Source: Nonlabens sp. (GTDB lineage: Bacteria > Bacteroidota > Bacteroidia > Flavobacteriales > Flavobacteriaceae). From it: a DNA stretch of 64,000 nucleotides. The position numbers were made by a program, and so were the translations under genes. Numbering within the stretch: position 1 is the first letter of the stretch; each line of letters starts with the position of its first letter. The notes beneath the pieces were generated by a model. It did no database searches. It worked only from the letters and a program-made list of their open reading frames with translations, and was not told the origin of the DNA. The stretch spans positions 12,329 to 76,328 of the forward strand of contig JBATVD010000039.1 of the NCBI GenBank assembly GCA_049671565.1, read 5' to 3'. Below are positions 23,001 through 53,085 of this stretch, piece by piece.

Positions 23001-23878
23001 AATCACTGGTTTCCGTTTGTCTACCTATGTATAACGGATCACAGTTCCTCAAAGAAGCTTTAGACTCCATTGGGGCACAAACTTATCCTAATATGGAGCT
23101 CATTGTTAGTGATGATGCTTCTAGCGATCATGGTCTTGAGATTGTTTCTCGCTTTCGCGAAAGCGTCACCTTTCCCGTTAAGATTTTTAAACATACACCA
23201 CAGGGAATAGGGGCAAACTGGAATCATTGCCTAGAAAAAGCAAGCGGCATTTATATCAAATACGTATTCCAAGATGATATTTTAGAGCCCACTTGTATAG
23301 AGGAAATGGTTGGGGCATTAGAAAACAATTCTCGCCTGGGCTTAATATCTTGTAAACGCTCTATAATTGTTGAAGAAGGCTCTGACCCACTTAAAATTCA
23401 AGAGTGGAAGTCAAAATATGGTAACCTTCAAAAGCAGCTTGAACCTAATTATTTTAAAGATGTCTTATTAACCAAAGATGTTTTTAAGCGTAAGGATTTT
23501 TTCAAAACTCCGCTCAATAAAATAGGAGAACCCAGCTTAGTACTTTTTAGGAAGTCTATCGTGGAGGAAGTGGGATATTTTAATGAGGATTTGAAACAAG
23601 ATTTGGACTATGAGTTTTGGTATAGGATTTTAAGAAAATATGATATTTTGATTTTGGGCCGGGAACTAGCCAGTTTTAGGATTCACTTAAATCAAGCGAC
23701 TAGTGTCAATGAACTTGAAGGAGCTGATGATTCAGACGCTTTTGCCCAAATCTTATACAATGACTTTCTACCTTACCTACACACAGATAAACAGAAAGAG
23801 CTTAAATTAAAATTCGATCCTTTTTTTAAGTGGAAGTTCAGGCTGAAACAAAGGTTAGGTAAGCTCGTCAAAAAATGA
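22997..23878 (+). CDS. glycosyltransferase family 2
   Basis: Motifs VCLPMYNGSQFL...SDDASSD and QDDI. It contains a palindrome copy that reads SRFRES. Confidence 0.8.
   Translation: MKSLVSVCLPMYNGSQFLKEALDSIGAQTYPNMELIVSDDASSDHGLEIVSRFRESVTFPVKIFKHTPQGIGANWNHCLEKASGIYIKYVFQDDILEPTCIEEMVGALENNSRLGLISCKRSIIVEEGSDPLKIQEWKSKYGNLQKQLEPNYFKDVLLTKDVFKRKDFFKTPLNKIGEPSLVLFRKSIVEEVGYFNEDLKQDLDYEFWYRILRKYDILILGRELASFRIHLNQATSVNELEGADDSDAFAQILYNDFLPYLHTDKQKELKLKFDPFFKWKFRLKQRLGKLVKK
23150..23165. repeat. iterated palindrome copy (16 bp CGCTTTCGCGAAAGCG) inside a GT2 CDS, codon phase 0
   Basis: Read directly; the codons are cgc ttt cgc gaa agc. Confidence 0.95.
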
Positions 23879-23899
23879 TTTCTAAAAAGAAGCATTCTC

Positions 23900-24790
23900 A
23901 TGATCATGAATGGTGACCGCATTTATATATTGATTCTCAACTACAACTCCTCTCAAGAGGTGATCAGGTTATACAATTCATTGAAAGTTGATTCCAGGGA
24001 AGAATACGTTTTTTTGATCATAGATAATTTGTCACCCCAGCCAGACCGGGAGCAATTAAAAAAAGCTATTCCTGATGAATGCCTTCTTTTGTTAAATACA
24101 AACGATGGCTACGCCTCGGGAAATAATGCTGGTATAAAACAAGCTATGAATAATGGGGCAACCCACATTTTAATATTAAATCCAGATATTGAAATAGCTG
24201 CAACAATCATTCATGATTTATATATACGCTTCAAATCGCTTGAAAAAACAGCTGCCCTAGGAACCAGGATATGTGATTCAGAAAACCCTGATATAATTTA
24301 TTCTGACGGTGGGATCATAAATAAAGAAAAAGGTTTTTCTACAAAACATCATAATGGCAAAAAGCTAACAAGTGAGGTTTCTGAGACTGGGTTACGAGAG
24401 GTAGATTATGTAAATGGGAGCGTCCTATTTACAAGTGTGGCAGTACTGCAGGATGTAGGACTCTTAGAGGAGTCTTTCTTTATGTATTTTGAGGAGACCG
24501 AGTGGTGTTTGAGAGCAAAGGAAAAGGGCTACAAATTGCTGGTAGATACAGATTTAACGGCCTACCACAAGCCGAGTTCAAAAAATACCCGTTATCAATT
24601 TTTAATGATTAGAAATAGGCTCTGGCTTGCCAAAAAATATCCAAAGTATTACCCAAAAGCAAAAAAAGTAGTTTTCCGTAAACTTAAGAAGGAGTCAATG
24701 AAAAAGCTAAAACGATTCCAACTACCCGGAAAAAATACCAGAGCAAAAATTAAAGGCTACCTGTATGGAGTCTATACCTCGCAGTCATGA
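23900..24790 (+). CDS. glycosyltransferase family 2 (rhamnosyltransferase-like subgroup)
   Basis: Motifs ILILNYNSS, IIDNLS and NDGYASGNN, with FMYFEETEWCLRA in the C-terminal half. Confidence 0.75.
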   Translation: MIMNGDRIYILILNYNSSQEVIRLYNSLKVDSREEYVFLIIDNLSPQPDREQLKKAIPDECLLLLNTNDGYASGNNAGIKQAMNNGATHILILNPDIEIAATIIHDLYIRFKSLEKTAALGTRICDSENPDIIYSDGGIINKEKGFSTKHHNGKKLTSEVSETGLREVDYVNGSVLFTSVAVLQDVGLLEESFFMYFEETEWCLRAKEKGYKLLVDTDLTAYHKPSSKNTRYQFLMIRNRLWLAKKYPKYYPKAKKVVFRKLKKESMKKLKRFQLPGKNTRAKIKGYLYGVYTSQS

Positions 24791-25827
24791 TCAAAGATGT
24801 ATTAATTCCCGCAGCGGCATCTGACAATAGTTTTTTTGAGGAAATTATAAATAATTCTCAATCTACACGATATCATTTCGGCTCCTTGGAGTCTGATATT
24901 TCAAAATTTAATGCTGTACTGATTCATTGGCCAGAGCAGTTGTTTGAATGGCAAGAACCTACAAATACTCAATTGGAGCAATTGGCTAGCGTATTGGGAA
25001 ATTGGTCATCGCGAGTACCTATTGTTCATGTAGTCCATAATCTGGCTCCTCATATCGGAACTAGTATTAAGTTCAGAAACCTGTATGAGCTGGTGTATAC
25101 AAATGCCACTACTATAATTCATTTAGGTACTTATAGTAAAAATCTTATGGAGGTGAAATATCCAGCCGCTGAGCATGTTGTCATAGAGCATCCTCTTTAT
25201 TCCAGTACCATGAGGGTTCGAGATAAATTTGAGGCGAGGAAACTTCTGGAGATTGATGAGGAACAATTCGTAGTTATAGTTCCGGGCACAGTCAGAAGCA
25301 TAGAAGAGAGAAAGATTATATTGAACTCTTTCAATGCTATAAATTGTAAGAATAAATTACTAATAGCCCCTAGAATGCTTTTTAAGCGTTTGAAGCCATT
25401 TTCAGGGTACTATAAAATAAAAAAGCTCTTTCCTATAGATCGTGTGTACGATTACTTTGCGAACAAACGATATGTGGGGAGTTATAGATTTAATAGTCGT
25501 TTTATAGACAGCGATAGCTTGTCTCAATTAATGTCTGCTTCTGATGTTGTATTAGTACCGAGATTTAATAATTTGAATTCTGGAATTATCTATTTAGGTT
25601 TGACGTTTTGTAAATTGATAGTAGGTCCGGATAACGGAAATAATTCTGAACTCTTGGAACGACATGATATGTTAAGTTACAATGTGGAAAAGCCAATTGA
25701 AGTGGCTCAAAAATTAAATCAAGCCTATAAACAGCATCGTGACTTTAGCTTAACTGATGGTGAGATAGATTATCTAAGACCCGAAAACATCGCTCTGAAA
25801 TGGGATCGTCTTTTTAGCAAGGTTTGA
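24787..25827 (+). CDS. hypothetical protein, possibly a GT-B-fold glycosyltransferase
   Basis: 346-aa ORF with a 4-nt overlap onto the upstream gene. The C-terminal half (VVLVPRFNNLNSGIIYLGLTFCKLIVGP) only loosely resembles a GT1/GT4 donor-binding domain, and I recognise no firm motif. Confidence 0.35.
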   Translation: MIKDVLIPAAASDNSFFEEIINNSQSTRYHFGSLESDISKFNAVLIHWPEQLFEWQEPTNTQLEQLASVLGNWSSRVPIVHVVHNLAPHIGTSIKFRNLYELVYTNATTIIHLGTYSKNLMEVKYPAAEHVVIEHPLYSSTMRVRDKFEARKLLEIDEEQFVVIVPGTVRSIEERKIILNSFNAINCKNKLLIAPRMLFKRLKPFSGYYKIKKLFPIDRVYDYFANKRYVGSYRFNSRFIDSDSLSQLMSASDVVLVPRFNNLNSGIIYLGLTFCKLIVGPDNGNNSELLERHDMLSYNVEKPIEVAQKLNQAYKQHRDFSLTDGEIDYLRPENIALKWDRLFSKV

Positions 25828-26118
25828 ATTTAGATTCAGGTAGGTGTATATCAAACAGAACTTACATCTACATCAACATATTCATTTAGACAGAGGGCTC
25901 AGTATTGTTTTCTGTAATAGGAGTTTTGCTTGTTATTATATTTAATTTTTAACCTGTATCTGTTATTAAAGCTACTCAATTTTCTGCAAAACGTCATGTA
26001 AAGTATTGACTTCGAGATATCAGCCATCAGTGACTACGGTTGTTTATAATTATCAAATAGTATTTTATTAATCAGGTATTAAGAATAGATAAGATCAGAT
26101 TATAAGTGCTCAGATTTG

Positions 26119-26126
26119 TATTTTTG
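26119..26126 (+). promoter_or_regulatory. -7 box (TATTTTTG) after a 319-bp gap inside the locus
   Basis: Matches TAnnTTTG and lies 20 nt upstream of the ATG at 26147. Confidence 0.4.
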
Positions 26127-26146
26127 CAGATCAATCATCTAATAAT

Positions 26147-27061
26147 ATGGATCCTTTAGTCTCTGTGATAATTCCTACCTTCAACGACTGGGATAGATTA
26201 AAGCTCTGCTTAAATGCTCTAGAAAAACAAACGTTCTCTATAAAGGATACAGAGATATTAGTTGTAAATAACAGCATAGATGATGATTGTCCTTACCAGT
26301 TAGACTCTAATGTAAGGTTACTAAGAGAGGTGACGCCAGGGTCTTATGCGGCTAGAAATAGGGCGCTAGGGGTTGCAAAGGGTAATATTTTGGGATTTAC
26401 TGATTCAGATTGTATTCCCAATGAAAATTGGATCAAATCAGGTGTTGATAAATTCAAACAGATTAATGAAGAATTCAAGGTAGTTTCAGGAAACATAAAT
26501 TTGTTTTATAGTAGTGAAAATCCATCTACCCTTGCAGAGCACTATGAGGCTCAATTTGGTTTCAGACATTTAGAGAAAAAAACTTCTAGAACAAAAACCT
26601 TTGTTACCGCAAATGTTTTTATTTCTAAAAACGTGTTTGATAGGGTAGGGTTATTCAATGAAAAGTTGTTTTCTGGTGGCGATTCAGATTTAGCCAAGCG
26701 AATTAAAAACAGCAAGATCAATATTCACTATTGTGAGCAGTGCTTGATTGAACATCCGGCGAGGAAGAATTTCAAGGATTTACTGAATAAAAGAGTCAGA
26801 ATCTTTGGAGGGAAGATTAAGAACAAGGCGTTGAGTCAAAATATTAAAATAAGCGGGTTTAATAAACCTTATTTAAATATCATTTGGAAAGAATTAAAAC
26901 AACAGAAAAAAAAATGGAAAGCAGATCGGTATCGAGCAAAACATGAAACTAAGCCCAAGGTAGAATCTACTAAGGTGATTAAGGCTCTTAATTTGATTTT
27001 TATAGGTATAGTTAAAGAGGCACTACATTTATCTATTTCCAGTAGATTTAAAAGAGAATAA
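26147..27061 (+). CDS. glycosyltransferase family 2
   Basis: Motifs VSVIIPTFND, ARNRALG and FTDSDC (DxD). Confidence 0.8.
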   Translation: MDPLVSVIIPTFNDWDRLKLCLNALEKQTFSIKDTEILVVNNSIDDDCPYQLDSNVRLLREVTPGSYAARNRALGVAKGNILGFTDSDCIPNENWIKSGVDKFKQINEEFKVVSGNINLFYSSENPSTLAEHYEAQFGFRHLEKKTSRTKTFVTANVFISKNVFDRVGLFNEKLFSGGDSDLAKRIKNSKINIHYCEQCLIEHPARKNFKDLLNKRVRIFGGKIKNKALSQNIKISGFNKPYLNIIWKELKQQKKKWKADRYRAKHETKPKVESTKVIKALNLIFIGIVKEALHLSISSRFKRE

Positions 27062-28243
27062 ATGAAATTAAACGTTTTGATATATTCTACTGTTTCGCCT
27101 TTTGAAAATAGAAGTCATGGTGGCGCAGAAACTTCTTTAAAGTTGCTCGGAGAGTCTCTGAGTAAAATTGGAGTTAATGTCGTTTATGTTACAGCTTCTT
27201 CAAAAAGGAGATTTAATACTTTATCTTATTCCCAAAAGGATAAATTAAAAGTGGTCACTTTGCATAATAGCATTTTGCCGCTAACAAATTTTCATAAAAT
27301 TAGATGTTTAATAAAGAAAATCAATGATCGTATTTTTGATAAAAATGTTCGCAAAATAATTGCGAACCATCAAATTACAACGGTATATACTTATTATGAA
27401 TTAGATGCGTGTCAACATTTTATCAAGTTGAAAGCAGAGCTGGGTTTCAAATATGTGGTTCGTATAGCGGGTATGCGCTGGGCAAACCAAATACAGAATA
27501 ATCCTGATCTTAAAGTCAATTTTGAGAATATCTTTAATTACGCTGATGGTTTGAATTTTATATCAGAGGGTCTAGTAAAAATTTTTAACAAAGAAGTATT
27601 CAGGCTAAATATGAATGTCATCCCAAAACAAAGCTTAGTGATGGATATAGGTGTGAGAAGCGATTTATTACGGAATAAGCACTGTGAACATTCAGATACT
27701 AATGGAAATATTTTCAATCTATTAATGGCTTCCAGACTTTCTTCACAACAAAAGAGGCAAGATATTTTAGTGAAGGCTATCAGCATTTTGCCTAAAAACT
27801 TCTCTTGCAAGTTATATCTAGTGGGAGATGGACCCGAAAGAAATTCCATTAAAAAATTGATTCAAGATTTGTCTATTGAGAACAAAGTTGAACTAATACC
27901 ATTTATGCCACAAGAGGATTTGTGGGGTTTAATGAAAGAAACTGATTTGCTATGTCATTCCTGTGATTACGAGGGTCTTAGTAAGGTTATTATTGAGAGT
28001 ATGGGTATGGGATTGCCGGTCTTGGCATCTAACGTACTGCCCCTAAATATGTATATCATTGATGGGAAAAATTCATACTTAGTAGACAACGATCCTCGAA
28101 AATGGGCTGATAAAATTTATCAGTTGTATTCAAATAAAGATCACCTTACAGAGGTAGGTACTAACGCTAAAGAATTTGTGAACAATCAATTTAACGCAAA
28201 GAAGAACGTACATAAATATGTTGATTTTTTTCAAAACTTATAA
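27062..28243 (+). CDS. glycosyltransferase family 4 (GT-B, group 1)
   Basis: The C-terminal motif EGLSKVIIESMGMGLPVLASN is of the EX7E type. Confidence 0.8.
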   Translation: MKLNVLIYSTVSPFENRSHGGAETSLKLLGESLSKIGVNVVYVTASSKRRFNTLSYSQKDKLKVVTLHNSILPLTNFHKIRCLIKKINDRIFDKNVRKIIANHQITTVYTYYELDACQHFIKLKAELGFKYVVRIAGMRWANQIQNNPDLKVNFENIFNYADGLNFISEGLVKIFNKEVFRLNMNVIPKQSLVMDIGVRSDLLRNKHCEHSDTNGNIFNLLMASRLSSQQKRQDILVKAISILPKNFSCKLYLVGDGPERNSIKKLIQDLSIENKVELIPFMPQEDLWGLMKETDLLCHSCDYEGLSKVIIESMGMGLPVLASNVLPLNMYIIDGKNSYLVDNDPRKWADKIYQLYSNKDHLTEVGTNAKEFVNNQFNAKKNVHKYVDFFQNL

Positions 28244-28249
28244 ATAGGC

Positions 28250-30383: not shown

Positions 30384-30431
30384 TTATTTACCAAATCTGA
30401 TAAGCGTCTCAATGCCTCTTAAATTCAGTTC

Positions 30432-31598: not shown

Positions 31599-31770
31599 AT
31601 ATTCGGATTTGTCCAGGAGCTGTGTAAAATTTGATCAGGTTATGGCTAGTAGACTAAGAGTCTTGTGGACATCAATTAACCCTCGTTCCTATGATTGCGT
31701 TAAATCCTTGAGGTGTTTGGCACTAGCCACTAATTCATTTTACTACTTCTATTTTAACTAGATAGGGACT

Positions 31771-33207: not shown

Positions 33208-33215
33208 GAGGGGTT

Positions 33216-35413: not shown

Positions 35414-35416
35414 GGG

Positions 35417-36054: not shown

Positions 36055-37449
36055 ATGCAGCAAACCATAAAAACCTCGATAATCCCAATCAATCAGCAAC
36101 TTGTTAAAATCAGGGGACAGGTACACGAAATTGACCATAAAGCAATTTGTCTATTTGCTGCAACTGGTTTCTTTTGGGATGATATGACATATTTTAAAGA
36201 TCAAAAAGTATTGCGTCCCGGTACGGTAAACAAAATTGATGATGATGGCTTTTTAATAGATTCTGAACCGTGGTTCAACTGGTATTATAAATCGGCAGAC
36301 CAGTCATTTCAAACCTCTGTCGAGCAACATAAGAATTTGCTAGAGCAGATTATAGGGGAGCAAGTTCAAGATAATAATGTGATTTTACCACTTTCTGGAG
36401 GCTTGGACAGTCGCAGTCAAGCCGTTGCCTTAAAAGAATTAGGTAAAAAGGTTACTTCTTATTCCTACTCGTTCAAGGATGGGTATAAAGAACATGGAAT
36501 AAGTCAAAAAATTGCCGAAGCTTGTAATTTTGATTTTCAAGCATTTGAAATACCATACAGTTACTTATGGAATAGAATTGATGAATTGGCAGAAATTAAC
36601 CAGTGTTATTCAGAATTCACCCACCCCAGGCAAATGGCCGTGCTTGATCAGCTCAAACAAATGGATGGAATTTTCTCACTTGGTCATTGGGGCGATGTAT
36701 TATTTGATACAGGTGGTGATGAGGGTATAGAAGACAACAACCTAGTCGCCTACATTCATAAAAAGGTAGTGAAAAAAGGAGGGATGGAACTGGCGCAATC
36801 GTTATGGAAATCTTGGGATCTTGATGGCTCATTTGAAGACTACATGACCCAAACGACTCAAGAATTGCTCGCTCAAATCAATATTGAAAACACCTCTGCC
36901 AAAGTACGAGCCTTTAAATCCACTTATTGGGCACCGCGCTGGACGAGTATCAATTTGAGCGTTTTTGAAGCCGCACATCCCATCACTTTACCTTATTATG
37001 ACGACCGTATGTGTCAATTGATTTGTGAAATCCCTGAAGACCATCTTGCAGACCGGAAGCTTCAAATTGAATATATCAAACAAACCAACCCAGAGGTTGC
37101 CAAGATTACTTGGCAGGATCAGAAGCCATTTAATTTGTTTAATTATCATAAAAATAGAATGCCATTAAACTTACCTTATAGGGTGACAAACAAACTCAAA
37201 CGCGTGCTTCAAGAAAAATCCGGTAAAAAATATGTGCAGCGCAATTGGGAATTACAATTTTTAGGTGAAGAGAATAAAAAGCAGTTGGAGTCTTATTTAT
37301 TTAGACCTGAATTTGCCAATTTTATCGATTCCGGATTGGTAAAGAATTTGTATCAAAAGTTTGAAAATCAAGATCAGGTTTGGTATTCGCACGCAATAAG
37401 TATGTTATTGACCTTGAGCGTTTGGCAGAGTCGTCAAGAAAATAAGTAG
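36055..37449 (+). CDS. asparagine-synthase-like ATP pyrophosphatase domain protein lacking the N-terminal glutaminase domain
   Basis: PP-loop LPLSGGLDSRS. There is no N-terminal Cys2/Ntn domain. Confidence 0.6.
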   Translation: MQQTIKTSIIPINQQLVKIRGQVHEIDHKAICLFAATGFFWDDMTYFKDQKVLRPGTVNKIDDDGFLIDSEPWFNWYYKSADQSFQTSVEQHKNLLEQIIGEQVQDNNVILPLSGGLDSRSQAVALKELGKKVTSYSYSFKDGYKEHGISQKIAEACNFDFQAFEIPYSYLWNRIDELAEINQCYSEFTHPRQMAVLDQLKQMDGIFSLGHWGDVLFDTGGDEGIEDNNLVAYIHKKVVKKGGMELAQSLWKSWDLDGSFEDYMTQTTQELLAQINIENTSAKVRAFKSTYWAPRWTSINLSVFEAAHPITLPYYDDRMCQLICEIPEDHLADRKLQIEYIKQTNPEVAKITWQDQKPFNLFNYHKNRMPLNLPYRVTNKLKRVLQEKSGKKYVQRNWELQFLGEENKKQLESYLFRPEFANFIDSGLVKNLYQKFENQDQVWYSHAISMLLTLSVWQSRQENK

Positions 37450-37536: not shown

Positions 37537-37556
37537 TTCGCTTTCGCGAAAGCGAA
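37537..37556. repeat. iterated palindrome copy (20 bp TTCGCTTTCGCGAAAGCGAA), intergenic
   Basis: Read directly. Confidence 0.95.
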
Positions 37557-42318: not shown

Positions 42319-42320
42319 CT

Positions 42321-44362: not shown

Positions 44363-45166
44363 ATGAATATTATACTAGCAGGGCCAGGTAGATCAGGAAC
44401 AACTTTGTTTAATCACATCTTTTCGCATCATGAAAAGTTTGCTTGGATTTCTGGTTGGGTAAGCAAATATCCAGCTTTTCCGCAGTTGAGCTTATTTAAT
44501 ATGCTTTATCAAAAGCAGCTGTGGGGCGTTAACTGGGCGCATGTAAGGTATTCGCCCAAACCAGCCGAAGCTTACCCTTTCTGGAATCATTTCTTCTATC
44601 CATTTGATAATTCAAATCACGCATTTGACAATAAGAGTATAACTCAATGTAGAGAAACGATATCAAAAATCAAGAAAGCATCACATAAAGAACATTTTGT
44701 CACTAAAATTACAGGTGAGACAAGGTTTGAAATATTGAATCAGGTATTTGAAGGAGATCTGAAATTTCTTTGGATAGAAAGAGATCCTCGAGTCGTGGTT
44801 TCCTCTTACATTAAACAAAAATGGGGTTATAAAAATAAACCAAAAGAGTTTGCAAATCTTTCAATGGAAGATAAGATAAATATAAATTGCTCAAGATATA
44901 TGAGTTTTTTCGAGGATTCCAAGAAAATAGAAAATAAGTCTCTTTATTTTTATGAAGATTTATGTGAGGATCCTATCGCATTTTTTACTAATATATTCAA
45001 TAAACTAGACCTAAATCTCAATGATGAATTGAAAGAAATTATTAGGAGTTGGGAGATCAAGCCTGTAGGTTGGGAGACGAAATATAAGCGCCAATATACA
45101 CAAGAACAACAATTCATGTTTGAGAACTTACTGTCTGAACCTCTGAAAGCATACAATTACCAGTAA
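44363..45166 (+). CDS. sulfotransferase family protein
   Basis: 5'-PSB-like AGPGRSGTTL and 3'-PB-like RDPRVVVSS. Confidence 0.7.
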   Translation: MNIILAGPGRSGTTLFNHIFSHHEKFAWISGWVSKYPAFPQLSLFNMLYQKQLWGVNWAHVRYSPKPAEAYPFWNHFFYPFDNSNHAFDNKSITQCRETISKIKKASHKEHFVTKITGETRFEILNQVFEGDLKFLWIERDPRVVVSSYIKQKWGYKNKPKEFANLSMEDKININCSRYMSFFEDSKKIENKSLYFYEDLCEDPIAFFTNIFNKLDLNLNDELKEIIRSWEIKPVGWETKYKRQYTQEQQFMFENLLSEPLKAYNYQ

Positions 45167-46491
45167 TGTTTAATTTTTTAAAATATCTACAACCTACTAG
45201 TTACTTTCGCTTAAAGCGAAAACAAAAAGGTAGCATATATCCTCACATAGAACAAATCAAACCTTCATTACTTAGTAAAGTGCCTAAAGATGTTTCTTAT
45301 CAGGACTCAAAGACTCAAGATTATGACCAGTCATGGAGGTTGATTCAAAAAGGTTATGTAGGTGATGGTGAAGCTTATAAGCAGTTTTCAAATCTACCTG
45401 TTGTAGATGAGTATAGATTTATACGCAAAAATTTCCATCCAGTTTGGGTGGTGTATGTTTTGGTAGTTAGGTTGCTGTCCTTTAAGAACCCAGTTCGTGA
45501 GATCTCCGCTTTCGCGAAAGCGAGATCCATAAAAAGAGTCAACGAGCATAAGGAACCCTTTGAATATCCTGAATATCAAACCTTCAACAGCTCCTTGATA
45601 GAGAAAAAGCCTCTTGTATCCATCGTGATTCCTACACTAAATAGATATCCTCATCTGAAGGACGTCATGGCAGATTTAGAAAAGCAGGACTACCAAAATT
45701 TTGAAGTGATCGTAGTGGATCAATCAGAACCTTTTCAACGTACATTTTATGAGGATTTTGATTTAGACATAAATTTGATTTATCAAGAAGAAAAAGCGCT
45801 TTGGTTAGCTCGAAATACCGCTATTCAGAAAAGTAAAGGTGATTTTATACTTTTATTTGATGATGATTCAAGAGTAGATCCAGATTGGATCAGTCAGCAT
45901 ATAAAGACACTGGATTTTTTCAAAGCTGATTTATCATCAGGAGTCTCTATTTCTACTCAAGGCGCAAAAGTTCCTGCTAGCTATGCGCATTTTGGGATCA
46001 GTGGTCAGCTGGATACGGGTAACGTTTTACTTAAAAAAGAAATTTTTAGGGATATCGGTTTATTCGATCGCCAGTTTGAAAAACAACGCATGGGAGATGG
46101 TGAGTTTGGCCTTAGAGCCTATCTAGCTGGCTATCTAAATATATCTAACCCATACGCCAAGCGTTTGCATCTAAAAGTAGGTTCAGGAGGACTGCGACAA
46201 ATGGGATCTTGGGATGGCTTCAGACCAAAAAAATGGTTTGACCCACGACCTATTCCAAGTGTCGTATACCTATTTCGTAAATATCACGGAAATTCTGCGG
46301 CGAGGTGGGCTCTTCTAAAAACGGTTCCCAGTTCAATTATGCCCTATAGATATAAAAGTAGCTCCATTATGATGTTATTAGGTGGTTTAATAAGTATATT
46401 TTTGTTACCAATTGTTCTATTACAGGTCAGAAAATCTTGGAAGCTAGCTACTCAAAAGCTAAATGAAGGTGAAAAAATTGAGAAGTTATGA
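45166..46491 (+). CDS. glycosyltransferase family 2 with ~145-aa N-terminal extension and C-terminal TM helix
   Basis: Motifs VSIVIPTLNRYPHL...VVDQS...FDDDS. The TAATG stop/start overlap with the upstream gene supports the long N-terminus. Confidence 0.75.
   Translation: MFNFLKYLQPTSYFRLKRKQKGSIYPHIEQIKPSLLSKVPKDVSYQDSKTQDYDQSWRLIQKGYVGDGEAYKQFSNLPVVDEYRFIRKNFHPVWVVYVLVVRLLSFKNPVREISAFAKARSIKRVNEHKEPFEYPEYQTFNSSLIEKKPLVSIVIPTLNRYPHLKDVMADLEKQDYQNFEVIVVDQSEPFQRTFYEDFDLDINLIYQEEKALWLARNTAIQKSKGDFILLFDDDSRVDPDWISQHIKTLDFFKADLSSGVSISTQGAKVPASYAHFGISGQLDTGNVLLKKEIFRDIGLFDRQFEKQRMGDGEFGLRAYLAGYLNISNPYAKRLHLKVGSGGLRQMGSWDGFRPKKWFDPRPIPSVVYLFRKYHGNSAARWALLKTVPSSIMPYRYKSSSIMMLLGGLISIFLLPIVLLQVRKSWKLATQKLNEGEKIEKL
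45205..45221. repeat. degenerate relative of the palindrome (TTTCGCTT-A-AAGCGAAA)
   Basis: Two 8-nt inverted arms separated by one base, read directly. It encodes FRLKRK in the GT2 N-terminal extension. Confidence 0.6.
45507..45522. repeat. iterated palindrome copy (16 bp) inside a GT2 CDS, codon phase 2 (reads SAFAKAR)
   Basis: Read directly; the codons are tcc gct ttc gcg aaa gcg aga. Confidence 0.95.
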
Positions 46492-47489: not shown

Positions 47490-48321
47490 TAAAAAGGTGG
47501 TCATAACGTGGGATTTTGATGGGCCTATTGGTATTATTAACGCTTCATATCCATATAATTTTCATTATAGTAACCTAGAGAGGGAAATAAATAATGCTAA
47601 AGCTATTCTCGATATTCTGGATGAGTATGATGTAAAAAGTTGTTTTGCAATAACTGGATTTTCTGCAGAGGAAGGGAAGTATCCATATACTTTCCCAGAA
47701 TTTATCAATGAGATATTTGAAAGAGGACATGAAGTTGCTTCGCACTCTTGGAGACATGAATGGTCTTCTATTTTTCAATTGAATCAAATAGATAAAAGCT
47801 TAAAACGCAGTAAAGAATCACTAAAGATGGCGATCAATCATAAACAGGAAATTTATGGCTTTGTACCGCCTCATAATAGACCTATGACTTGGCTCAGGCG
47901 TGGAGCTTTCAGTTGGGGTGATCGTGGCGTATATCCATTTTTCAAAGCAGCTGATAATGAGAGTATCATTAACCTTTTGAAAAAAAATAATTATAAGTGG
48001 TTGCGAGTTTCTTATAAAAACATTTTCCAAAAAATACGCCTTCAGTCCAGAAACATTACCGGTAGAATACATCATTATAAGGGAATCATGCTGCTTGAAA
48101 ACCACCACACAGGTTTTGGAAAAAAAGTCACCAAGCATATTTTGGAAACTAACTACGAGACTTATATTCTAAGTGCTCACCCTTTGATGTTTGATTTTAA
48201 AGATAAGACAGAAAATAAAGAGAATTTTATTTACTTACTAGACACCCTTAAAAATTCCACTCAGGACATTGAGTTTGTAAGACCTATTGATTTACTTAAT
48301 ATGTATAAGGGTGGCAATTAA
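47476..48321 (+). CDS. polysaccharide deacetylase (CE4/NodB homology domain)
   Basis: Motifs TWDFDGP (DD-type motif 1 variant) and HEVASHSWRHE (HxxxxH metal motif). Confidence 0.7.
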   Translation: MKMSSKKVVITWDFDGPIGIINASYPYNFHYSNLEREINNAKAILDILDEYDVKSCFAITGFSAEEGKYPYTFPEFINEIFERGHEVASHSWRHEWSSIFQLNQIDKSLKRSKESLKMAINHKQEIYGFVPPHNRPMTWLRRGAFSWGDRGVYPFFKAADNESIINLLKKNNYKWLRVSYKNIFQKIRLQSRNITGRIHHYKGIMLLENHHTGFGKKVTKHILETNYETYILSAHPLMFDFKDKTENKENFIYLLDTLKNSTQDIEFVRPIDLLNMYKGGN

Positions 48322-49420
48322 AGAGAAGAAAATTTTAATTCTAACATCAGAATTTCCACCTCAACCAGGTGGTATAGGCCAGCATGCGCTAGATTTAGCC
48401 AAACAATTAGAAAAAAGACATCAAGTCATAGTCATTGCAGATCAGCGATCTAATGATGGTGTGGAGGAACTCAATTTTGATGCTGATCTAGACTTTAAAG
48501 TAATAAGAATAAAACGTTTAGATAAAATCGCTTTCACTTATGCTTTTAGATTAAAAGAGACTTTGAATCATTTGAGTAAGGTAGATCTAGTGATGACATC
48601 GGGAAAATTTTCTCTTTGGCAAATCCATATGATCAAATTGCGCTTCCCTTCAAAGCCCGTGATTGCTATTATTCATGGATCTGAAGTGCTTCTACCATCT
48701 AAAATCACCAAAAAGTTGACAGATAGAGCCTTAGAGAAAGCAGATTGTGTAGTGGCGGTTTCACACTATACACAAAGTTTAGTCAATCACTTGAAAATTA
48801 AATCCATGAAAGTGATTCCTAATGGAATCACTAATATTCCCGACTATAAAAAAAATGTGATAGATTCCAATGAAATTCATTTGCTGACCGTAGGTAACCT
48901 CACTCAGCGTAAAGGGCAACACAATGTAATTGAAGCCTTGCCTCTGATTTTAAAAGAATTCCCACAAGTACACTACCATTGTGTTGGACTTCCTACAAAT
49001 CTAGAACAGCTTCAAGAGCTGGCGGAAAAACTTCAAGTTAGTGAGGCTGTCACTTTTCACGGTCGTTTGAGTGAGCGAGATAAGCAAAAATTTTACGAAA
49101 ACTCCCATATTTTTCTGATGTTGAGTGAGCGTACGGAATCAGGTGACGTTGAGGGTTTTGGTATAGCAATATTAGAGGCAAATGCTAATGGGCTTCCAGC
49201 AATAGGTAGTTCTGGTAGTGGAATAGAGGATGCTATAAAATCAGGACACTCCGGCTATTTGGTGAATCCACATGATAAAAACGATATCGTAGAAGCACTC
49301 CGAAACATTCTAAAAGATTACCCAAGTTTTGAAAAGCAATCCTATACCTGGTCAAAAAGTTTCAAATGGGAAGTTTTAATTCAAGACTACCATCAACTTT
49401 TAAAGCATTTATGCGCATAG
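48287..49420 (+). CDS. glycosyltransferase family 4 (start uncertain: TTG 48287 or GTG 48311)
   Basis: Motifs LTSEFPPQPGGIG...EGFGIAILEANANGLPAIGSSGSGIEDAI. Confidence 0.8.
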   Translation: MIYLICIRVAIKEKKILILTSEFPPQPGGIGQHALDLAKQLEKRHQVIVIADQRSNDGVEELNFDADLDFKVIRIKRLDKIAFTYAFRLKETLNHLSKVDLVMTSGKFSLWQIHMIKLRFPSKPVIAIIHGSEVLLPSKITKKLTDRALEKADCVVAVSHYTQSLVNHLKIKSMKVIPNGITNIPDYKKNVIDSNEIHLLTVGNLTQRKGQHNVIEALPLILKEFPQVHYHCVGLPTNLEQLQELAEKLQVSEAVTFHGRLSERDKQKFYENSHIFLMLSERTESGDVEGFGIAILEANANGLPAIGSSGSGIEDAIKSGHSGYLVNPHDKNDIVEALRNILKDYPSFEKQSYTWSKSFKWEVLIQDYHQLLKHLCA

Positions 49421-50547
49421 TAATCATTTCACATACGGAGCATTATAAAAGCACTGAAGGTGTAATCAAGGGATGGGGTTCAACAATACGTGAACTGAAT
49501 CATGTCGCTGAAATTTGTGATGAGTTGATTCATCTAGCTCCACTACATAATGATTTACCACCAGATAGCAGCTTAAGTTATACATCTAATAAAATCCAAT
49601 TTGTTGCTTTGAAGCCTTCAGGCGGTAAAGGTTTGAAGAAGTTAAGTATCATACAAACTGCTCTTCACAATTTAAAGTTGATTCACAAGTACACTAAGTC
49701 AGCTGATTATGCACAATTTCGAGCCCCAACAGGAATGGGTCTTTATGTGCTTCCCTATTTGAAACTGTTTAGATCTAATTCATACTGGATAAAATATGCG
49801 GGTAACTGGATTGACCCAGAAATGCCTCTTGGCAATCGTATACAAAAATATTGGTTGAAAAATATCGATCGTAAGGTAAAGGTAACGATCAACGGAAGAT
49901 GGGAAAGTAATCCACGATTCATCCCTTTCGAAAACCCTAGTTTGACGAGTGAAGAACATCTTATAGGTAAAGATATTATTAATGATAAAATAAAGAATTC
50001 TCCCGATAAATTCAGACTCATTTTTGTTGGAAGCCTTAATAGGCATAAAGGGGTTCATCTTATAATCGATACATTTATAAAGCTGAAAAATAAATCTTGT
50101 TTTTCCGAAATATTATTTGTTGGCGACGGAGCAGAGCGAAAAGTATTTGAAAAAAGTGCCAAACAAATTGATTTTCCAATTCATTTTCTAGGCCATTGTT
50201 CTAAAGAAAAAGTAGCAGAACTACTTGCGAGAAGCCATGTATTATTGCTTCCCTCAAAAAGCGAGGGTTTTCCTAAGGTAGTTGGTGAAGCGATGAATTT
50301 TGGATGTATTCCGATAGTTTCCGATGTCTCATGTTTAAGCGATTATATAAAAACAGGAGAGAATGGTTTAGTATTGGACGATCTGTCAAGTGACGCCATA
50401 TGGAGTGCTTTGGAGACCATAAGTAAATGGAGTTTGTCAGATTATCATATGGCTTTAAAGAAAAATGCAGGTCTAGCTTCTAGATTTACTTACCAACACT
50501 ATAACTTTGCACTAAAGTCAAAAATATTGAGGTCGGACAAAAGATAG
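49366..50547 (+). CDS. glycosyltransferase family 4; likely start ATG 49411
   Basis: Motif SEGFPKVVGEAMNFGCIPIVSDVSCLSDYI. The 49411 start gives a 10-nt overlap with the upstream stop. Confidence 0.75.
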   Translation: MGSFNSRLPSTFKAFMRIVIISHTEHYKSTEGVIKGWGSTIRELNHVAEICDELIHLAPLHNDLPPDSSLSYTSNKIQFVALKPSGGKGLKKLSIIQTALHNLKLIHKYTKSADYAQFRAPTGMGLYVLPYLKLFRSNSYWIKYAGNWIDPEMPLGNRIQKYWLKNIDRKVKVTINGRWESNPRFIPFENPSLTSEEHLIGKDIINDKIKNSPDKFRLIFVGSLNRHKGVHLIIDTFIKLKNKSCFSEILFVGDGAERKVFEKSAKQIDFPIHFLGHCSKEKVAELLARSHVLLLPSKSEGFPKVVGEAMNFGCIPIVSDVSCLSDYIKTGENGLVLDDLSSDAIWSALETISKWSLSDYHMALKKNAGLASRFTYQHYNFALKSKILRSDKR

Positions 50548-50647
50548 CATGTTTTAAAATCTTTAGAAGATGCATTTTGATGACTTTTAAGCCCTAAGAA
50601 AAGTAAACGTTCACAACTCGTTTTATTAATAGATACCTACTATAAGG

Positions 50648-52060
50648 ATGCCCAAAATAGAAAACCTTCCCTATCCTATAGTAATACTTATTCACATCAT
50701 TCTTGGAGCTGCTATTGTAACTGTTCCTTTTCTAGCCAAAATTCTTGTTTTAGTTGTAATGGGATATTTGTTGCTTAGAATTTTAAATAACTCTGATCGC
50801 AATAACGAGGTTCTGCTGGCATGTATTTACTTTGTCTGTGTAGAAGTTTTCTTTAAGATGACCAAAGCCATGCCCCTTTATGAAATGGGTAAATATTTTG
50901 TCTTGATTTGTGTTGTTTTAGGAATTTTACTGAAAGGATTTTCTTTAAAGTCTTCATTCTATGTCATTTATATTCTAACGTATATCCCTGCTATTTTTGT
51001 TGCAGCAGAAAATATAGCAATTGATGAGAGCCTCCGTAAATCCATAGCCTTCAACCTCGCTGGACCTGTCATATTGGGCGTTGTTGCCATTTACTGTTAT
51101 AACAGAAAAATTTCTAGAGAGAAATTACTAAACCTGTTTGGACTAGGGGCAGCTGCTTTAGCCATGATGGCTGTTTATGTGGTTTTTTCGGCTCCTAGTG
51201 TAGAAGAAATTGATTTCAATGCAGCTTCAAATGCTACAGCCTCTGGTGGGTATGGACCTAATCAAGTCTCTACCGCATTTGGTATCGGTATATTTTTGAC
51301 ATTTGCGAGATTTATTCTTATTAAAAAGCTATCCCATAACTTGATAGACCTCAGTCTTTTTTTAATATTTACTTACAGAGGATATTTAACTTTTTCAAGA
51401 GGAGGGGTTTTAACTGCATTTGTAATGATAGCGGCTTTCATATTTACAATAACCATTTTATATAGAAGTGGGTTTCGAAAATCTTTCATACCCAAATTTA
51501 TTTTAATAGGTGCAGGGGTCGTTTTGGCTTTTGCATATACCAGTGTAGTGACAGGAGGAATGGTGGACAATAGATATGCTAATAAAAATTCATTAGGAGA
51601 GGAAAAGGAAGACTTGACCACAGGTAGAGGTGAATTGGCAAGTTTGGAAATACAGGCTTTTTTAGAAAATCCAGTTTTAGGCATCGGTGCCGGGATGTCT
51701 AAGTATTATAGACTTAGAAAAGCAGGAATAGGAGGAGCTTCACATAATGAATTGACGCGGACTCTTTCCGAACATGGATCAATAGGGGTTTTGTCTATTG
51801 CAATGTTGGTTTTTATACCCTTGTTTTATCGATTGGGAGATCGATCCAACATATTTTTTTATAGTTTTTTAATATTTTGGTTTGCCACCATCAACCATTC
51901 CGCAATGCGTATCGCGGCACCTTCTTTTATTTATGGTTTGGCTTTGCTGAGATTCTTACCCCCAGATAAAAAATCTTTAAAAGATGAAGAGGGAAAAGAT
52001 GAATTTGTAGAGCTTATTAAAGAAAGAAAACTACTTTCACCAAGGCGCTTAAAGACATGA
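50648..52060 (+). CDS. O-antigen ligase / polymerase family membrane protein (Wzy_C domain)
   Basis: About 10-12 hydrophobic helices. A FSRGGVL block and a loop with GIGAG...ASHNELTRTLSEHGSIG (HNxxL...E.G hallmark) are present. Confidence 0.7.
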   Translation: MPKIENLPYPIVILIHIILGAAIVTVPFLAKILVLVVMGYLLLRILNNSDRNNEVLLACIYFVCVEVFFKMTKAMPLYEMGKYFVLICVVLGILLKGFSLKSSFYVIYILTYIPAIFVAAENIAIDESLRKSIAFNLAGPVILGVVAIYCYNRKISREKLLNLFGLGAAALAMMAVYVVFSAPSVEEIDFNAASNATASGGYGPNQVSTAFGIGIFLTFARFILIKKLSHNLIDLSLFLIFTYRGYLTFSRGGVLTAFVMIAAFIFTITILYRSGFRKSFIPKFILIGAGVVLAFAYTSVVTGGMVDNRYANKNSLGEEKEDLTTGRGELASLEIQAFLENPVLGIGAGMSKYYRLRKAGIGGASHNELTRTLSEHGSIGVLSIAMLVFIPLFYRLGDRSNIFFYSFLIFWFATINHSAMRIAAPSFIYGLALLRFLPPDKKSLKDEEGKDEFVELIKERKLLSPRRLKT

Positions 52061-53085
52061 AATTGGACATACTGTACATTGGCAATAAATTAAGTGTTCA
52101 TGGCTACAACGTGAGCTATATGGAAACTTTGGGGCCCTACTTGGAAAAAGAGGGGCATCAAGTGACTTACGCTTCAGATAAAAAAAATAAAATTTCCAGA
52201 TATATAGATATGTTGGTAACGCTTTCGCGAAAGCGTTATTCCGTAGACCTCGTGCTCATTGACACCTATAGTACATTGAATTACTGGTATGCAGTAAGTG
52301 TTGCGAAATTATGCCAACAATATGATATTCCCTATATACCTATTCTCCACGGTGGAAATTTGCCTCATCGTGCTAAATCATCAAGAAGTAGTTTTAAAAA
52401 ATTGATTGAAAGTGCATTTGTAGCCGTTTGTCCCAGTAAATATTTACAGGAATCGCTATCTCAGCTCGGTTTTTCTAATTTTGAGATTATCAAAAATACG
52501 GTGGCTATTAGTGATTATGATTTTAAGGCAAGAAAGAGTGCTCAGCCCAATTTATTATGGGTGCGTTCATTCTCACAGATTTACAATCCTGAGATGGCTG
52601 TTAAAGTATTGAAGTTTGTAAAGGCCAAGTATTCTAATGCCACCTTATGCATGATAGGTCCAGATAAAGATGGCTCGCTGGAACGAACTAAAAAATTAGC
52701 CCAAGGTTTAGATTTAAATGTGGAATTTACTGGGAAAATGACAAAGGAGGCCTGGAGAGCCAAAAGTCTAGATTTTGATATTTTTATTAATACCACCCAC
52801 TTTGACAACCTGCCTATAAGCCTTATAGAGTCTATGGCACTAGGACTTCCCATCGTGTCAACTAATGTAGGTGGCATTACTTACCTAATCAACGACGGCA
52901 GCACTGGGCTTTTAGTGGGTGATAAGGATGTGGATCATATGTGCGAGTCTATAGAAATGCTCATTCAATCACCAGAGCTTACCGCTTCAATCAGTGAAAA
53001 TGCAAGACTTGAAGCAGAGAAGTACGGATGGAACATCGTAAAAGAAGAATGGAAAAGGTTATTGTCTAAAGTTCCCAAGCGATGA
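52057..53085 (+). CDS. glycosyltransferase family 4
   Basis: Motif FDNLPISLIESMALGLPIVSTNVGGITYLI. It contains the longest palindrome copy. Confidence 0.8.
   Translation: MKLDILYIGNKLSVHGYNVSYMETLGPYLEKEGHQVTYASDKKNKISRYIDMLVTLSRKRYSVDLVLIDTYSTLNYWYAVSVAKLCQQYDIPYIPILHGGNLPHRAKSSRSSFKKLIESAFVAVCPSKYLQESLSQLGFSNFEIIKNTVAISDYDFKARKSAQPNLLWVRSFSQIYNPEMAVKVLKFVKAKYSNATLCMIGPDKDGSLERTKKLAQGLDLNVEFTGKMTKEAWRAKSLDFDIFINTTHFDNLPISLIESMALGLPIVSTNVGGITYLINDGSTGLLVGDKDVDHMCESIEMLIQSPELTASISENARLEAEKYGWNIVKEEWKRLLSKVPKR
52217..52238. repeat. iterated palindrome copy (22 bp TAACGCTTTCGCGAAAGCGTTA) inside a GT4 CDS, codon phase 1 (reads TLSRKRY)
   Basis: Read directly. Confidence 0.95.

Follow-up and report, generated by a model that had tools for sequence, protein, structure and literature searches.

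A highly iterated palindrome of Nonlabens and related Flavobacteriaceae is maintained as DNA within and between genes

Introduction

The palindrome described here, apparently undescribed so far, is HIP1-like in behaviour, yet longer and rarer than HIP1 (GCGATCGC) of cyanobacteria, its nearest analogue (Elhai 2015, PMC4390886; Xu et al. 2018, PMC5861425). Both words are clade-specific, exact and hugely over-represented, occur in non-coding DNA and in all three coding frames, are conserved across genomes above background independently of codon preference or peptide, and have spread by substitution with no evident gene-level function. Their sequences are unrelated, and the palindrome belongs to another phylum, the Bacteroidota. 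Compared with HIP1 it is longer (14–20 bp versus 8 bp), less dense (about one copy per 6–8 kb versus up to one per 0.3–1 kb) and more enriched by orders of magnitude; no short methyltransferase site inside it is enriched alone, its copies are enriched 3–5-fold in spacers, and nothing comparable to its strand-asymmetric flanks of about 30 nt was found in the consulted passages of PMC4390886 and PMC5861425.

The USS and DUS uptake signals share with the palindrome that an over-represented exact word lies in all frames of genes with a bias towards tolerable peptides, accumulates by point substitution, is enriched between genes, is clade-specific, occurs in phages of the host and shows a signal in the composition of its flanks. 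Known uptake signals are asymmetric, non-palindromic words of 9–12 nt found about once per kb, whereas the palindrome is perfectly symmetric, longer and rarer. The parS site TGTTNCACGTGAAACA and the Noc-binding NBS of the ParB-family/nucleoid-occlusion systems are perfect palindromes of 16 bp to which a dimeric protein binds; like the present word, they are scattered over the chromosome, often within coding sequences, and conserved as DNA. The half-site of the present word agrees with theirs at 3 of 8 positions, which we take to be no match, and its copy number is about 10–100 times higher. REP/BIME elements (RAYT) and the Rickettsia RPE are likewise short palindromic repeats with hundreds of copies, and some REP/RPE families stand in frame in genes, but as insertions that add residues, whereas the palindrome substitutes without indels; they are also imperfect, vary in a structure-preserving way, and are mostly extragenic and clustered, whereas the palindrome is invariant and found as singletons.

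Results and discussion

The window analysed here, a stretch of 64,000 nucleotides from Nonlabens sp., contains a sole highly repeated word, GCTTTCGCGAAAGC, with nine exact 14-mers (starts 2849, 14679, 21927, 23151, 37540, 45508, 52221, 54915 and 60589) where 0.11 are expected; a count of ten was reached in none of 100 shuffles. This core is mostly extended to a 16-mer CGC...GCG, seven of the nine exact window copies showing the full CGCTTTCGCGAAAGCG, and intergenic copies have a 20-bp consensus T-A-C...G-T-A. Extrapolation from the density of one per 6–8 kb leads to an estimate of about 400–500 copies per genome. Of 118 stretches sampled among the matches listed in a scan of 185,579 species genomes, 105 come from Dokdonia, Nonlabens or unclassified Flavobacteriaceae, and on these matches the word is clade-specific, belonging to Dokdonia, Nonlabens and their relatives in the Flavobacteriaceae. 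The contig of a bona fide tailed phage also has six copies or more, at a density like that of the host. With ORF-based gene calls and loci picked for at least one exact 16-mer, the census comprised 187 exact copies, 17 with one mismatch and 17 with two.

Five exact copies of the window lie in genuine genes, all of which match homologues in full length, and four are intergenic. The 14-mer at 2849..2862 (15/16 of the 16-mer) is read as RFRES (R50-S54) in a minus-strand class-I methyltransferase gene (2219-3010); the codons CGC TTT CGC GAA AGC are retained in three orthologues (L003, L124, L126), a fourth (L125) has one mismatch and reads RFRKS, and a fifth (L127), aligned without indels, has TFRKE and no palindrome. 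The same codons, in frame by the ORF coordinates, encode RFRES (R52-S56) at 23151..23164 (16-mer from 23150) in the plus-strand GT2 gene 22997-23878. Homologues at 40–48% identity show F(K/S)xx at this site without an indel, and the Phe predates the palindrome. At 45508..45521 (16-mer from 45507) AFAKA (A115-A119) is encoded by GCT TTC GCG AAA GCG in the plus-strand gene of a 441-aa GT2 (45166-46491), with identical codons in L196 and Nonlabens spongiae (L120). The site is missing, again with no indel, in L194, L195 and other genera, where A-Y/F/W-x-K-T-R is found; as the L194 orthologue is 86% identical, sites evidently turn over. The N-terminal domain of this GT2, taken for an extension in the preliminary description, is a real one, conserved end to end in orthologues of several other Flavobacteriaceae genera, including Psychroflexus, Mesonia, Winogradskyella and Aequorivita, and the site is therefore truly coding. 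In the plus-strand GT4 gene 52057-53085 the copy at 52221..52234 (16-mer from 52220) is read as LSRKR after T55, the codons from 52219 being ACG CTT TCG CGA AAG CGT (T55-R60); it is retained in N. spongiae (L120 position 12960), and remoter homologues have TLISNR, TIHKNR and the like, without indel. The exact 16-mer at 54915..54928 in the minus-strand SRPBCC gene 54735-55205 gives RFRES (R93-S97), and NRFRES is invariant in 13 of 13 homologues, with identical codons in all five for which DNA was available. A degenerate copy, GCTTTCGCGAAATT (12/14; 6440..6453), encodes RFREI in the plus-strand APS kinase gene 6010-6669; it may have decayed from an exact copy or may be a proto-site.

The occurrence in genes in three frames, as first described, was thus confirmed against the ORF coordinates (RFRES three times, AFAKA and LSRK). 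That no copy introduces a stop or frameshift is true but automatic, because the palindrome is stop-free in three frames and identical on both strands, and no site has an indel. An insertion of 5–7 residues, raised earlier as an alternative, is wrong for all four testable coding sites, which are substitution patches with no indels. Intragenic copies arose by base substitution without insertion, where the ancestral sequence resembled the palindrome and tolerated the change. The proposed placement in surface or linker segments is only partly right: in the predicted structures a core beta-strand (residues 86–101, pLDDT about 94) has the SRPBCC site at its middle, and the site of the 441-aa GT2 forms the C-terminal end of a helix (109–119).

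Between genes, exact 16-mers with cores at 14679..14692, 37540..37553 and 60589..60602 and an exact 14-mer at 21927..21940 were found. The first lies between the end of an ABC-transporter ATPase gene (14392) and the start of a plus-strand gene (14954), and the sole ORF overlapping it, of 93 codons on the minus strand, has no family match. The 14-mer lies between the GT2 gene 20871-21851 and position 22119, the copy at 37540 between an asparagine-synthase-like gene (36055-37449) and 37737, and the last between a MoxR ATPase gene (59584-60537) and an aconitase gene (60801-63068), a spacer in which L120, L121 and L123 also carry the palindrome although the rest can hardly be aligned. Overall, genes hold 60% of copies compared with a coding share of the DNA of 87%, an intergenic enrichment of about 3–5-fold, and all spacer types hold copies in proportion to their length.

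In orthologues at 53–100% identity the site is encoded by identical codons, in contrast to the synonymous variation of the codons around it, which strongly supports the earlier proposal that selection or a drive acts on the DNA word. The 14-mer was kept in 10 of 12 unbiased orthologous comparisons versus about 0.6–2% of control 14-mers, and against N. spongiae all four window sites were conserved (control 14-mers, 1.9%). The palindrome is hence maintained as DNA, letter-perfect, within and between genes; it is the DNA word and no peptide that is maintained, because it is letter-perfect in genes and translated in any frame it occupies. A continuing drive (biased uptake or repair) would, like selection, lead to this conservation. 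All three frames are used, but they are not equally tolerated: host genes show 65 AFAKA, 27 xFRES and 21 LSRK (chi-square about 30) and so prefer the frame with the blandest peptide, AFAKA, while phage DNA uses the frames evenly (15/15/14). These peptides are passive read-outs of the palindrome. At times AFAKA also serves as an A-x-A site for signal peptidase.

On balance we lean towards a clade-specific, highly iterated palindrome that is recognised as duplex DNA sequence by a two-fold symmetric, dimeric protein, a recognition step suggested by the symmetry and sharpness of the putative site. Sequence rather than structure would be recognised, since exact copies dominate, compensatory changes are absent among two-mismatch variants (0/17 in the census, 0/~20 with synteny loci added), preferences at the outer positions are symmetric but hardly covary, and the flanks add no folding energy. 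The whole word is needed, as sub-words such as TCGCGA, CGCG, GCTTTC and CTTTCG show no enrichment elsewhere, CGCG outside the palindrome even standing at about half of its expected count. A role at the level of single genes is disfavoured because all frames are used, spacers are occupied by length, and searches of Rfam and for tRNAs gave no match. Around the word, a footprint of about 30 nt per side is strand-asymmetric, C-poor 5' and G-poor 3', with T-rich sequence upstream and A-rich downstream; coding, intergenic and phage copies show it, and copies arising by chance in genomes of unrelated organisms do not. The footprint that the recognising protein or process would leave is symmetric and spans about 75 bp; candidate roles are the organisation or maintenance of the chromosome, the marking of self-DNA, or DNA uptake. 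Strand-specific C/G depletion over 30 nt is not usual at simple sites of the operator type, and may instead reflect an enzymatic or mutational process.

Much less likely is molecular drive by a DNA-uptake signal, in which competent cells would prefer DNA with the palindrome, and preferential uptake would therefore spread matching alleles via transformation, as for the Haemophilus USS and Neisseria DUS, while the word builds up by point mutation at tolerant places. Within the same family, Riemerella columbina is documented to be naturally competent and to favour its own DNA (PMC7965970). Such a drive accounts for accumulation through substitution without indels, for the genic deficit, for the frame bias to tolerable peptides, and for clade-specific 'dialects', conserved orthologous sites and copies in the clade's phages; it fits less well with the scarcity of one-mismatch copies (17 versus 187 exact) and with known uptake signals being about six times denser besides shorter and non-palindromic. 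Nor do we know of any counterpart to the way in which C and G are depleted strand by strand in the flanks.

Slightly less probable again is a neutral mutational drive, with repair or conversion turning near-matches exact and the palindrome itself functionless. The system would resemble very-short-patch repair and might be linked to a cytosine methyltransferase whose target is the central CGCG, but it would need a specificity of 14–20 bp, and to our knowledge no VSP or methyltransferase site comes near this. The large excess of exact over near copies is what it predicts, and among one-mismatch copies C6->T (CpG->TpG; 4/17) is the most frequent change, also seen in the orthologous decays in L090 and L115; the word is moreover present, evenly over the frames, in phage DNA resident in these cells. 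However, the unenriched sub-words and the low CGCG count speak against it, the intergenic enrichment and flank footprint are not obviously explained, and the equivalent idea for HIP1 was disfavoured by conservation tests (PMC5861425).

A mobile hairpin of REP, MITE or RPE type, which a Y1 (RAYT) transposase would have spread and sometimes placed in frame in genes, is already largely refuted and very improbable: 60% of copies are intragenic, the tested sites show no insertion although REPs and RPEs lengthen the proteins of the genes that they enter (PMC3733652), and copies are singletons, not arrays, with no GTAG or CGTC tag, no compensatory stem variants and no longer body in common. It would suit the palindromic form, the intergenic enrichment and the frequent position of copies near the 3' ends of genes (median 51 nt), and one Nonlabens genome has a RAYT-like Y1_Tnp gene (L123 1029-1577); yet the repeat that flanks this gene, the sole RAYT examined, is another one, of 55 nt, and not the palindrome.

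We give as little credence to a hairpin acting in transcripts as terminator, stabiliser or processing site. A stem of 6–8 bp with a CGCG loop is possible (−4.3 to −7.3 kcal/mol), and many intergenic copies follow soon after stop codons, but most copies are in coding sequence, the stem lacks a U-tract and its T-rich upstream and A-rich downstream flanks are the opposite of a terminator, convergent or tandem spacers are not preferred beyond their share of length, and neither compensatory changes nor Rfam matches were seen.

Finally, protein-level selection for a shared peptide motif, to which the invariant NRFRES of the SRPBCC homologues might point, was rightly excluded at the outset and is refuted by the codon data, given three unrelated translations, 30–40% non-coding copies, frozen synonymous positions, orthologues in other genera that lack these peptides, and peptides that almost never occur with codons other than those of the palindrome. 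Among 265,000 codons, the palindrome or a one-mismatch derivative encodes 74 of 74 AFAKA, 30 of 31 RFRES and 27 of 32 LSRK, despite rare codons such as CGC, GCG, TCG and CGA.

Copies of the palindrome in the window and their reading frames

The 14-mer GCTTTCGCGAAAGC is a perfect palindrome, commonly lengthened to CGCTTTCGCGAAAGCG in the window copies inspected, and occurs nine times exactly in the window (at 2849, 14679, 21927, 23151, 37540, 45508, 52221, 54915 and 60589), seven of these copies being the full 16-mer. Dinucleotide-preserving shuffles of the window, which has a G+C content of 36%, led to a mean of 0.11 and a maximum of one 14-mer, and no other 10-12-nt word in the window was repeated to a comparable degree. 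Five of the nine copies are located inside long ORFs with clear family assignments. On the plus strand the word is read as RFRES in a GT2 gene at 22997-23878 (GT2-293), as AFAKA in a second GT2 gene at 45166-46491 (GT2-441) and as (T)LSRKR in a GT4 gene at 52057-53085; on the minus strand it is read as RFRES both in a methyltransferase gene (2219-3010) and in an SRPBCC gene (54735-55205). These frames, derived from the ORF coordinates, match those of the preliminary description. Its further observation that no stop or frameshift arises is true at all of these sites but uninformative, because none of the word's three frames contains a stop codon and both strands of a palindrome read alike. The remaining four copies lie in spacers between plus-strand genes, and a family match for the 93-codon antisense ORF across 14679 was searched without result. 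A copy with two mismatches (12/14) at 6440-6453, within an APS kinase gene (6010-6669), reads RFREI; it either decayed from a full copy or represents a proto-site situated on a kinase motif that is conserved.

Distribution and anatomy of the palindrome

A taxonomic scan with one genome per species (185,579 species) detected at least 118 stretches carrying the 16-mer. Among the 118 matches listed, 45 were from Dokdonia, 34 from Nonlabens (including strain BBFL7, which we take to belong to this genus) and 26 from unclassified Flavobacteriaceae MAGs, with 13 sporadic single matches outside these groups. For a census of copies, ORF-based gene calls were made in the window and in the 105 loci from Dokdonia, Nonlabens and the unclassified MAGs (8-20 kb, each chosen for at least one exact 16-mer; L-numbers denote loci from other genomes or viral contigs). 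Of 187 exact copies in total, ORFs of 120 codons or more contained 113; a further 56 were clearly non-coding and 18 ambiguous. By the same criterion ORFs make up 87% of this DNA but hold about 60% of the copies, and spacers are 3-5-fold enriched in them. Tandem, convergent and divergent spacers showed no preference beyond their share of spacer length, which led us to reject a promoter or terminator role; an intrinsic terminator is also rejected by a downstream flank that is A/C-rich, not T-rich, and by the intragenic position of most copies.

Among the 113 coding copies, AFAKA was read in 65, xFRES in 27 and LSRK in 21 (chi-square about 30). Tolerance in all three codon phases, as claimed initially, thus holds in so far as every frame is occupied, but the frames are used unequally.

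Degenerate copies were rare, with 17 one-mismatch and 17 two-mismatch copies against the 187 exact ones. This ratio is inflated because every locus was picked for one exact 16-mer, but it is still at least about 5:1 when one copy per locus is subtracted, and 9:0 for one-mismatch copies in the window. Compensatory changes were absent among the two-mismatch copies. Outside the core, a consensus T-(A/T/C)-C ... G-(T/A/G)-A extends the word to the 20-bp palindrome TACGCTTTCGCGAAAGCGTA, which is sharper in spacers than in genes and covaries weakly at a single position (z about 3). Since TCGCGA, CGCG, GCTTTC and CTTTCG showed no excess except as parts of the complete word, the palindrome as a whole is the unit. 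Copies were singletons except for one pair in a single spacer (L097:5296 and 5384, 88 nt apart).

The commonest change in degenerate copies affected the central CpG (C6 to T, or G to A on the other strand), as at L090:4472, L115:994, L088:1091 and the methyltransferase site of L125, which would fit cytosine methylation of the centre, the numbers being small (four of 17 one-mismatch copies). In the window, TTCGAA is very scarce, with three copies where base composition predicts about 21, and CGCG outside the palindrome reaches about half of what is expected; these deficits may come from avoidance of restriction sites or from loss of CpG.

Conservation of the DNA word

The motif NRFRES was invariant in 13 of 13 aligned SRPBCC homologues, and this invariance, taken alone, could be explained by conservation of the protein. 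However, RFRES was encoded by exactly CGC TTT CGC GAA AGC in all five genomes for which DNA was compared (53-100% protein identity), whereas conserved residues beside the site varied synonymously (AAA/AAG, GGA/GGT/GGC, GTT/GTG/GTA, AAC/AAT and GAG/GAA). Fixed site codons with synonymous neighbours were also found in the methyltransferase and GT2-441. The window is syntenic over about 20 kb with Nonlabens spongiae CP019344, two of the proteins being 74% identical. At 71% nucleotide identity, all four palindromes of this syntenic segment were kept, compared to 1.9% of control 14-mers fully kept (0.6-2.1% in other pairs). Counting only loci that had not been retrieved via the palindrome, the word was kept in 10 of 12 orthologous comparisons; a BLAST cross-match between the window copy at 54915 and L196 was left out as it is not an orthologous comparison. 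The sample of these tests is small, about a dozen orthologous comparisons, and a whole-genome Jaccard test is not part of it. In the moxR-aconitase spacer the copy was present in four genomes, with the rest of the spacer at 55-59% identity and many gaps.

In the long ORFs surveyed (265,393 codons), 74 of 74 AFAKA, 30 of 31 RFRES and 27 of 32 LSRK peptides were encoded by an exact palindrome or by one with a single mismatch, and the codons of the word are disfavoured ones (GCG 13% of Ala, CGC 16% and CGA 13% of Arg, TCG 6% of Ser, TTC 20% of Phe). Judged by this codon evidence, the peptides exist owing to the DNA word and not vice versa. A shared peptide motif, which the preliminary description had already discarded on the strength of the differing translations, is largely ruled out by the frozen synonymous positions and the tie between peptides and palindrome codons; the same peptides without the palindrome were sought in distant genera, with a negative outcome. 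The proposal that the DNA word itself is constrained is likewise borne out by the frozen site codons, by palindromes that outlast control 14-mers and by peptides encoded almost solely by the palindrome. Either selection or a continuing drive could produce such conservation at orthologous sites.

Substitution in host proteins

Full-length homologues of GT2-441 (60-87% identity, 100% coverage) were found in Psychroflexus, Mesonia, Winogradskyella and Aequorivita, among other Flavobacteriaceae genera. Because of this full-length conservation the so-called N-terminal extension is a real domain, and a mis-annotated N-terminus at 45508 was ruled out by the 441-aa architecture kept across genera. The alignment is free of gaps at the site, with S-AFAKA-R in the window, three close relatives and N. 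spongiae, and A-(Y/F/W)-x-K-(T/G)-R in every other aligned sequence. Gap-free alignments were also obtained for the other three proteins. Homologues of GT2-293 (39-47% identical) carry, for example, TAFKNS, EEFKNE or EAFKER; TLSRKR of the GT4 is kept at 63-65% identity and replaced by TLISNR, TIHKNR or SIWKNR in farther relatives; and the methyltransferase site is RFRES in four genomes, RFRKS in one, TFRKE in a 44%-identical homologue and NLYKKL in distant ones. A Phe or Tyr plus a Lys or Arg was mostly present beforehand. The alignments with motif-less homologues thus identify the testable sites as substitution patches on a stretch that already existed, varied locally and resembled the motif in part, and the insertion of 5-7 residues considered as an alternative in the preliminary description is ruled out by zero indels in all four alignments. 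Intragenic REPs and Rickettsia palindromic elements enter as in-frame insertions and add residues to host proteins (PMC3733652), whereas the palindrome adds none at the four aligned sites and is therefore separate from both.

In AlphaFold models built from alignments, AFAKA (residues 115-119) closes helix 109-119 of GT2-441 at its C-terminal end, immediately ahead of a loop (mean pLDDT 77.7; local about 93). In the SRPBCC protein, beta-strand 86-101 has RFRES (residues 93-97) at its middle (mean pLDDT 90.5). By homology with GT-A/GT-B folds, the other two glycosyltransferase sites would be at the ends of surface helices. The suggested placement in surface or linker segments is therefore a tendency, to which the SRPBCC site in the middle of a predicted strand does not conform.

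About eight AFAKA sites end signal-peptide-like hydrophobic N-termini, as in MKKIITIILVF-AFA-KAVSAQQ; secreted-looking hosts are found at L055:1667, L014:4855, L064:6347, L065:3355, L007:5484, L023:1303 and L070:3059. Signal peptidase recognises sites by the A-x-A rule, and as A-F-A fits this rule, the palindrome supplies the predicted signal-peptidase site in those proteins.

Composition of the flanks

Over about 30 nt of the 5' flank, read toward the palindrome, the C content was 0.07-0.10 compared to 0.17-0.19, with T and G enriched, and the 3' flank was the mirror image (G-poor, A/C-rich). This footprint, for which window 45478-45551 is an example, was gone by 31-60 nt. In genes it covers all three codon positions and peaks at the third, where C falls to 0.07 upstream and G to 0.07 downstream; amino-acid composition is consequently altered too. 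It was also seen at spacer copies, phage copies and independently retrieved synteny loci (loci covered: L001-L123 and L152-L193) but was absent at 14 chance copies in unrelated genomes that served as a control.

Several origins of the footprint were rejected. A longer hairpin or extended stem was discarded because complementarity past offset 3 only matches marginal base frequencies, and additional base pairing because controls with shuffled flanks folded just as well. A longer mobile element or conversion with carry-over of flanks does not fit shared extensions that are near the null (49 flank pairs sharing at least 8 nt, compared to 38 in a column-shuffled null). In L194 the divergent patch round the GT2-441 site reaches about 130 nt into a generally hypervariable segment and is off-centre from the palindrome, so that it speaks neither for nor against this origin. 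Deamination coupled to replication or to sense transcription fails because the footprint is dyad-symmetric even within genes transcribed one way. The flank composition points to a two-fold symmetric agent that would act on, or select, about 75 bp.

Copies in phages

Among 2.9 million viral contigs, the 16-mer was detected in 42 stretches, and several contigs carry repeated copies. The 37-kb tailed-phage contig IMGVR_UViG_3300040781_000495 (L173:2050-6097 and L190) contains at least six copies at host-like density, together with genes for a terminase, portal protein, head protease, major head protein, tail sheath and baseplate hub. The copies of this contig include sites within its terminase and portal genes. 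Viral genes overall show no frame bias (15/15/14). Whichever factor keeps the word in place, it also affects the phages of the clade or is turned to use by them.

Comparison with known elements

The cyanobacterial HIP1 word GCGATCGC contains the GATC and CGATCG sites of orphan methyltransferases, and its spacing along the chromosome is periodic, with periods of 10-90 kb. To our knowledge its function has stayed unexplained twenty-five years after its discovery, and it has been essentially a curiosity of one phylum. HIP1 is the closest analogue of the palindrome, and published work has demonstrated its enrichment and conservation in all three frames and in non-coding DNA, independent of codon preference (PMC5861425; PMC4390886). 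The palindrome shares the features of this class: it is an exact short palindrome far over-represented across a clade (nine copies versus 0.11 expected), it occurs in coding (113 copies, 65/27/21) as well as non-coding DNA (56-74 of 187), and it is conserved above control words without codon preference or a peptide to account for it (4/4 versus 1.9%, in a small sample). It differs from HIP1 in phylum and sequence (GCGATCGC occurs only twice in the window), in length (14-20 bp versus 8 bp) and in being roughly ten times rarer per kb. It also differs in a far greater over-representation, the lack of an independently enriched core of methyltransferase size and a flank footprint that HIP1 is not known to have. 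The palindrome thus works like HIP1 yet is not HIP1, and tolerance in three frames is the behaviour expected of a HIP-like word. It appears to be an undescribed, unusually long variant with a strand-asymmetric footprint; no paper was found for the 12-mer or 14-mer, nor one linking iterated palindromes with Flavobacteria, in a literature search that was thin in subscription journals, so that a prior description is possible.

The parS site of the ParB family has the consensus TGTTNCACGTGAAACA and few copies near the origin; compared by eye with this consensus the palindrome differs, and nine copies in 64 kb are far too many. REPs are mainly extragenic imperfect palindromes with compensatory stems and BIME clusters, whereas the palindrome occurs as singletons without compensatory variants, and the REP/RAYT reading is largely ruled out by the approximately 60% of copies within ORFs of at least 120 codons. 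RAYT genes are flanked by their repeat, but the one RAYT-like gene seen, a 182-aa Y1_Tnp gene on the minus strand (1029-1577) of L123, is bracketed by another repeat. This locus (L123:480-1820; Nonlabens sp. MAG M30B61, JAGYKG010000003) shows inverted tandem units of about 55 nt with the GC-rich repeat CGCGTCACAGACGCGCGCGAA...GAGTCGCGTTGCAAACGC, unrelated to the palindrome, and is a classic REP/BIME-RAYT arrangement in the Nonlabens lineage.

Possible recognition and function

On this comparative evidence the palindrome proves to be a clade-specific, letter-perfect and highly iterated word under constraint at the DNA level, which, judging from the alignments, enters genes through substitution and is translated passively in whichever frame it meets. 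The invariant stem positions and missing compensatory variants, an outer consensus that is symmetric but does not covary, the need for the word in full and the symmetry of the footprint all suggest that it would be recognised as a sequence in duplex DNA by a dimeric protein and not as a hairpin. Such recognition would be independent of any gene-level role. An RNA element is largely ruled out, and a search for known RNA or tRNA gave no match.

As a tentative joint reading, which we regard as possible though not probable, the palindrome would be a genome-wide 'self' tag of the Nonlabens/Dokdonia lineage, read by a putative dimeric protein, and the phages of the clade would have adopted it so as to be treated as self. 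The action of this protein would span about 30 nt per side and distinguish the strands, leaving C-poor and G-poor flanks. The process served might be of a new type, with the palindrome signalling DNA uptake, acting like a bidirectional Chi or as a signal against degradation, or serving to load a chromosome-organising machine. Two rival readings survive, both at low probability. Molecular drive of the uptake-signal type is unlikely: competence with a preference for self DNA has been reported in the family, for Riemerella alone (PMC7965970), but the perfect palindrome of 14-16 bp, at about one copy per 6-8 kb, is unlike USS/DUS, which are non-palindromic, 9-12 nt long and present about once per kb. 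We consider a neutral drive by biased repair distinctly unlikely. A short methyltransferase-like core, to which such a drive may be tied, was rejected, since TCGCGA, CGCG and the half-sites show no excess beyond the full word.

Apart from the self-tag reading, the palindrome offers marine Flavobacteriaceae as a second, independent system, longer and sharper than HIP1, in which to ask what iterated words do. Practical advantages are the few hundred sites per genome, a 20-bp target long enough for the pull-down of a binding protein, cultivable hosts (Nonlabens and Dokdonia), phages that carry the word and a footprint hinting at the mechanism. It also illustrates how a constraint on DNA shapes proteins, whole pentapeptides being owed to the word even in a core beta-strand and at predicted signal-peptide cleavage sites. 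Annotators may note that the word marks the clade and gives rise to spurious 'conserved motifs'.

Surrounding locus

Nearly all genes between about 5000 and 53100 of the window (approximately 48 kb) are on the plus strand, and this region is a polysaccharide biosynthesis locus. It contains many GT2 and GT4 genes, an ABC exporter ATPase and the APS kinase; synteny with annotated relatives adds sulfotransferases, a Wzy-like polymerase, an acetyltransferase and a deacetylase. The right part of the locus (32-53 kb) is syntenic with N. spongiae CP019344. Just past the aconitase gene, at the end of the window, fragmented ORFs of a DDE transposase (DDE_Tnp_1_3) at 63359-63967 are probably a broken or frameshifted IS element.
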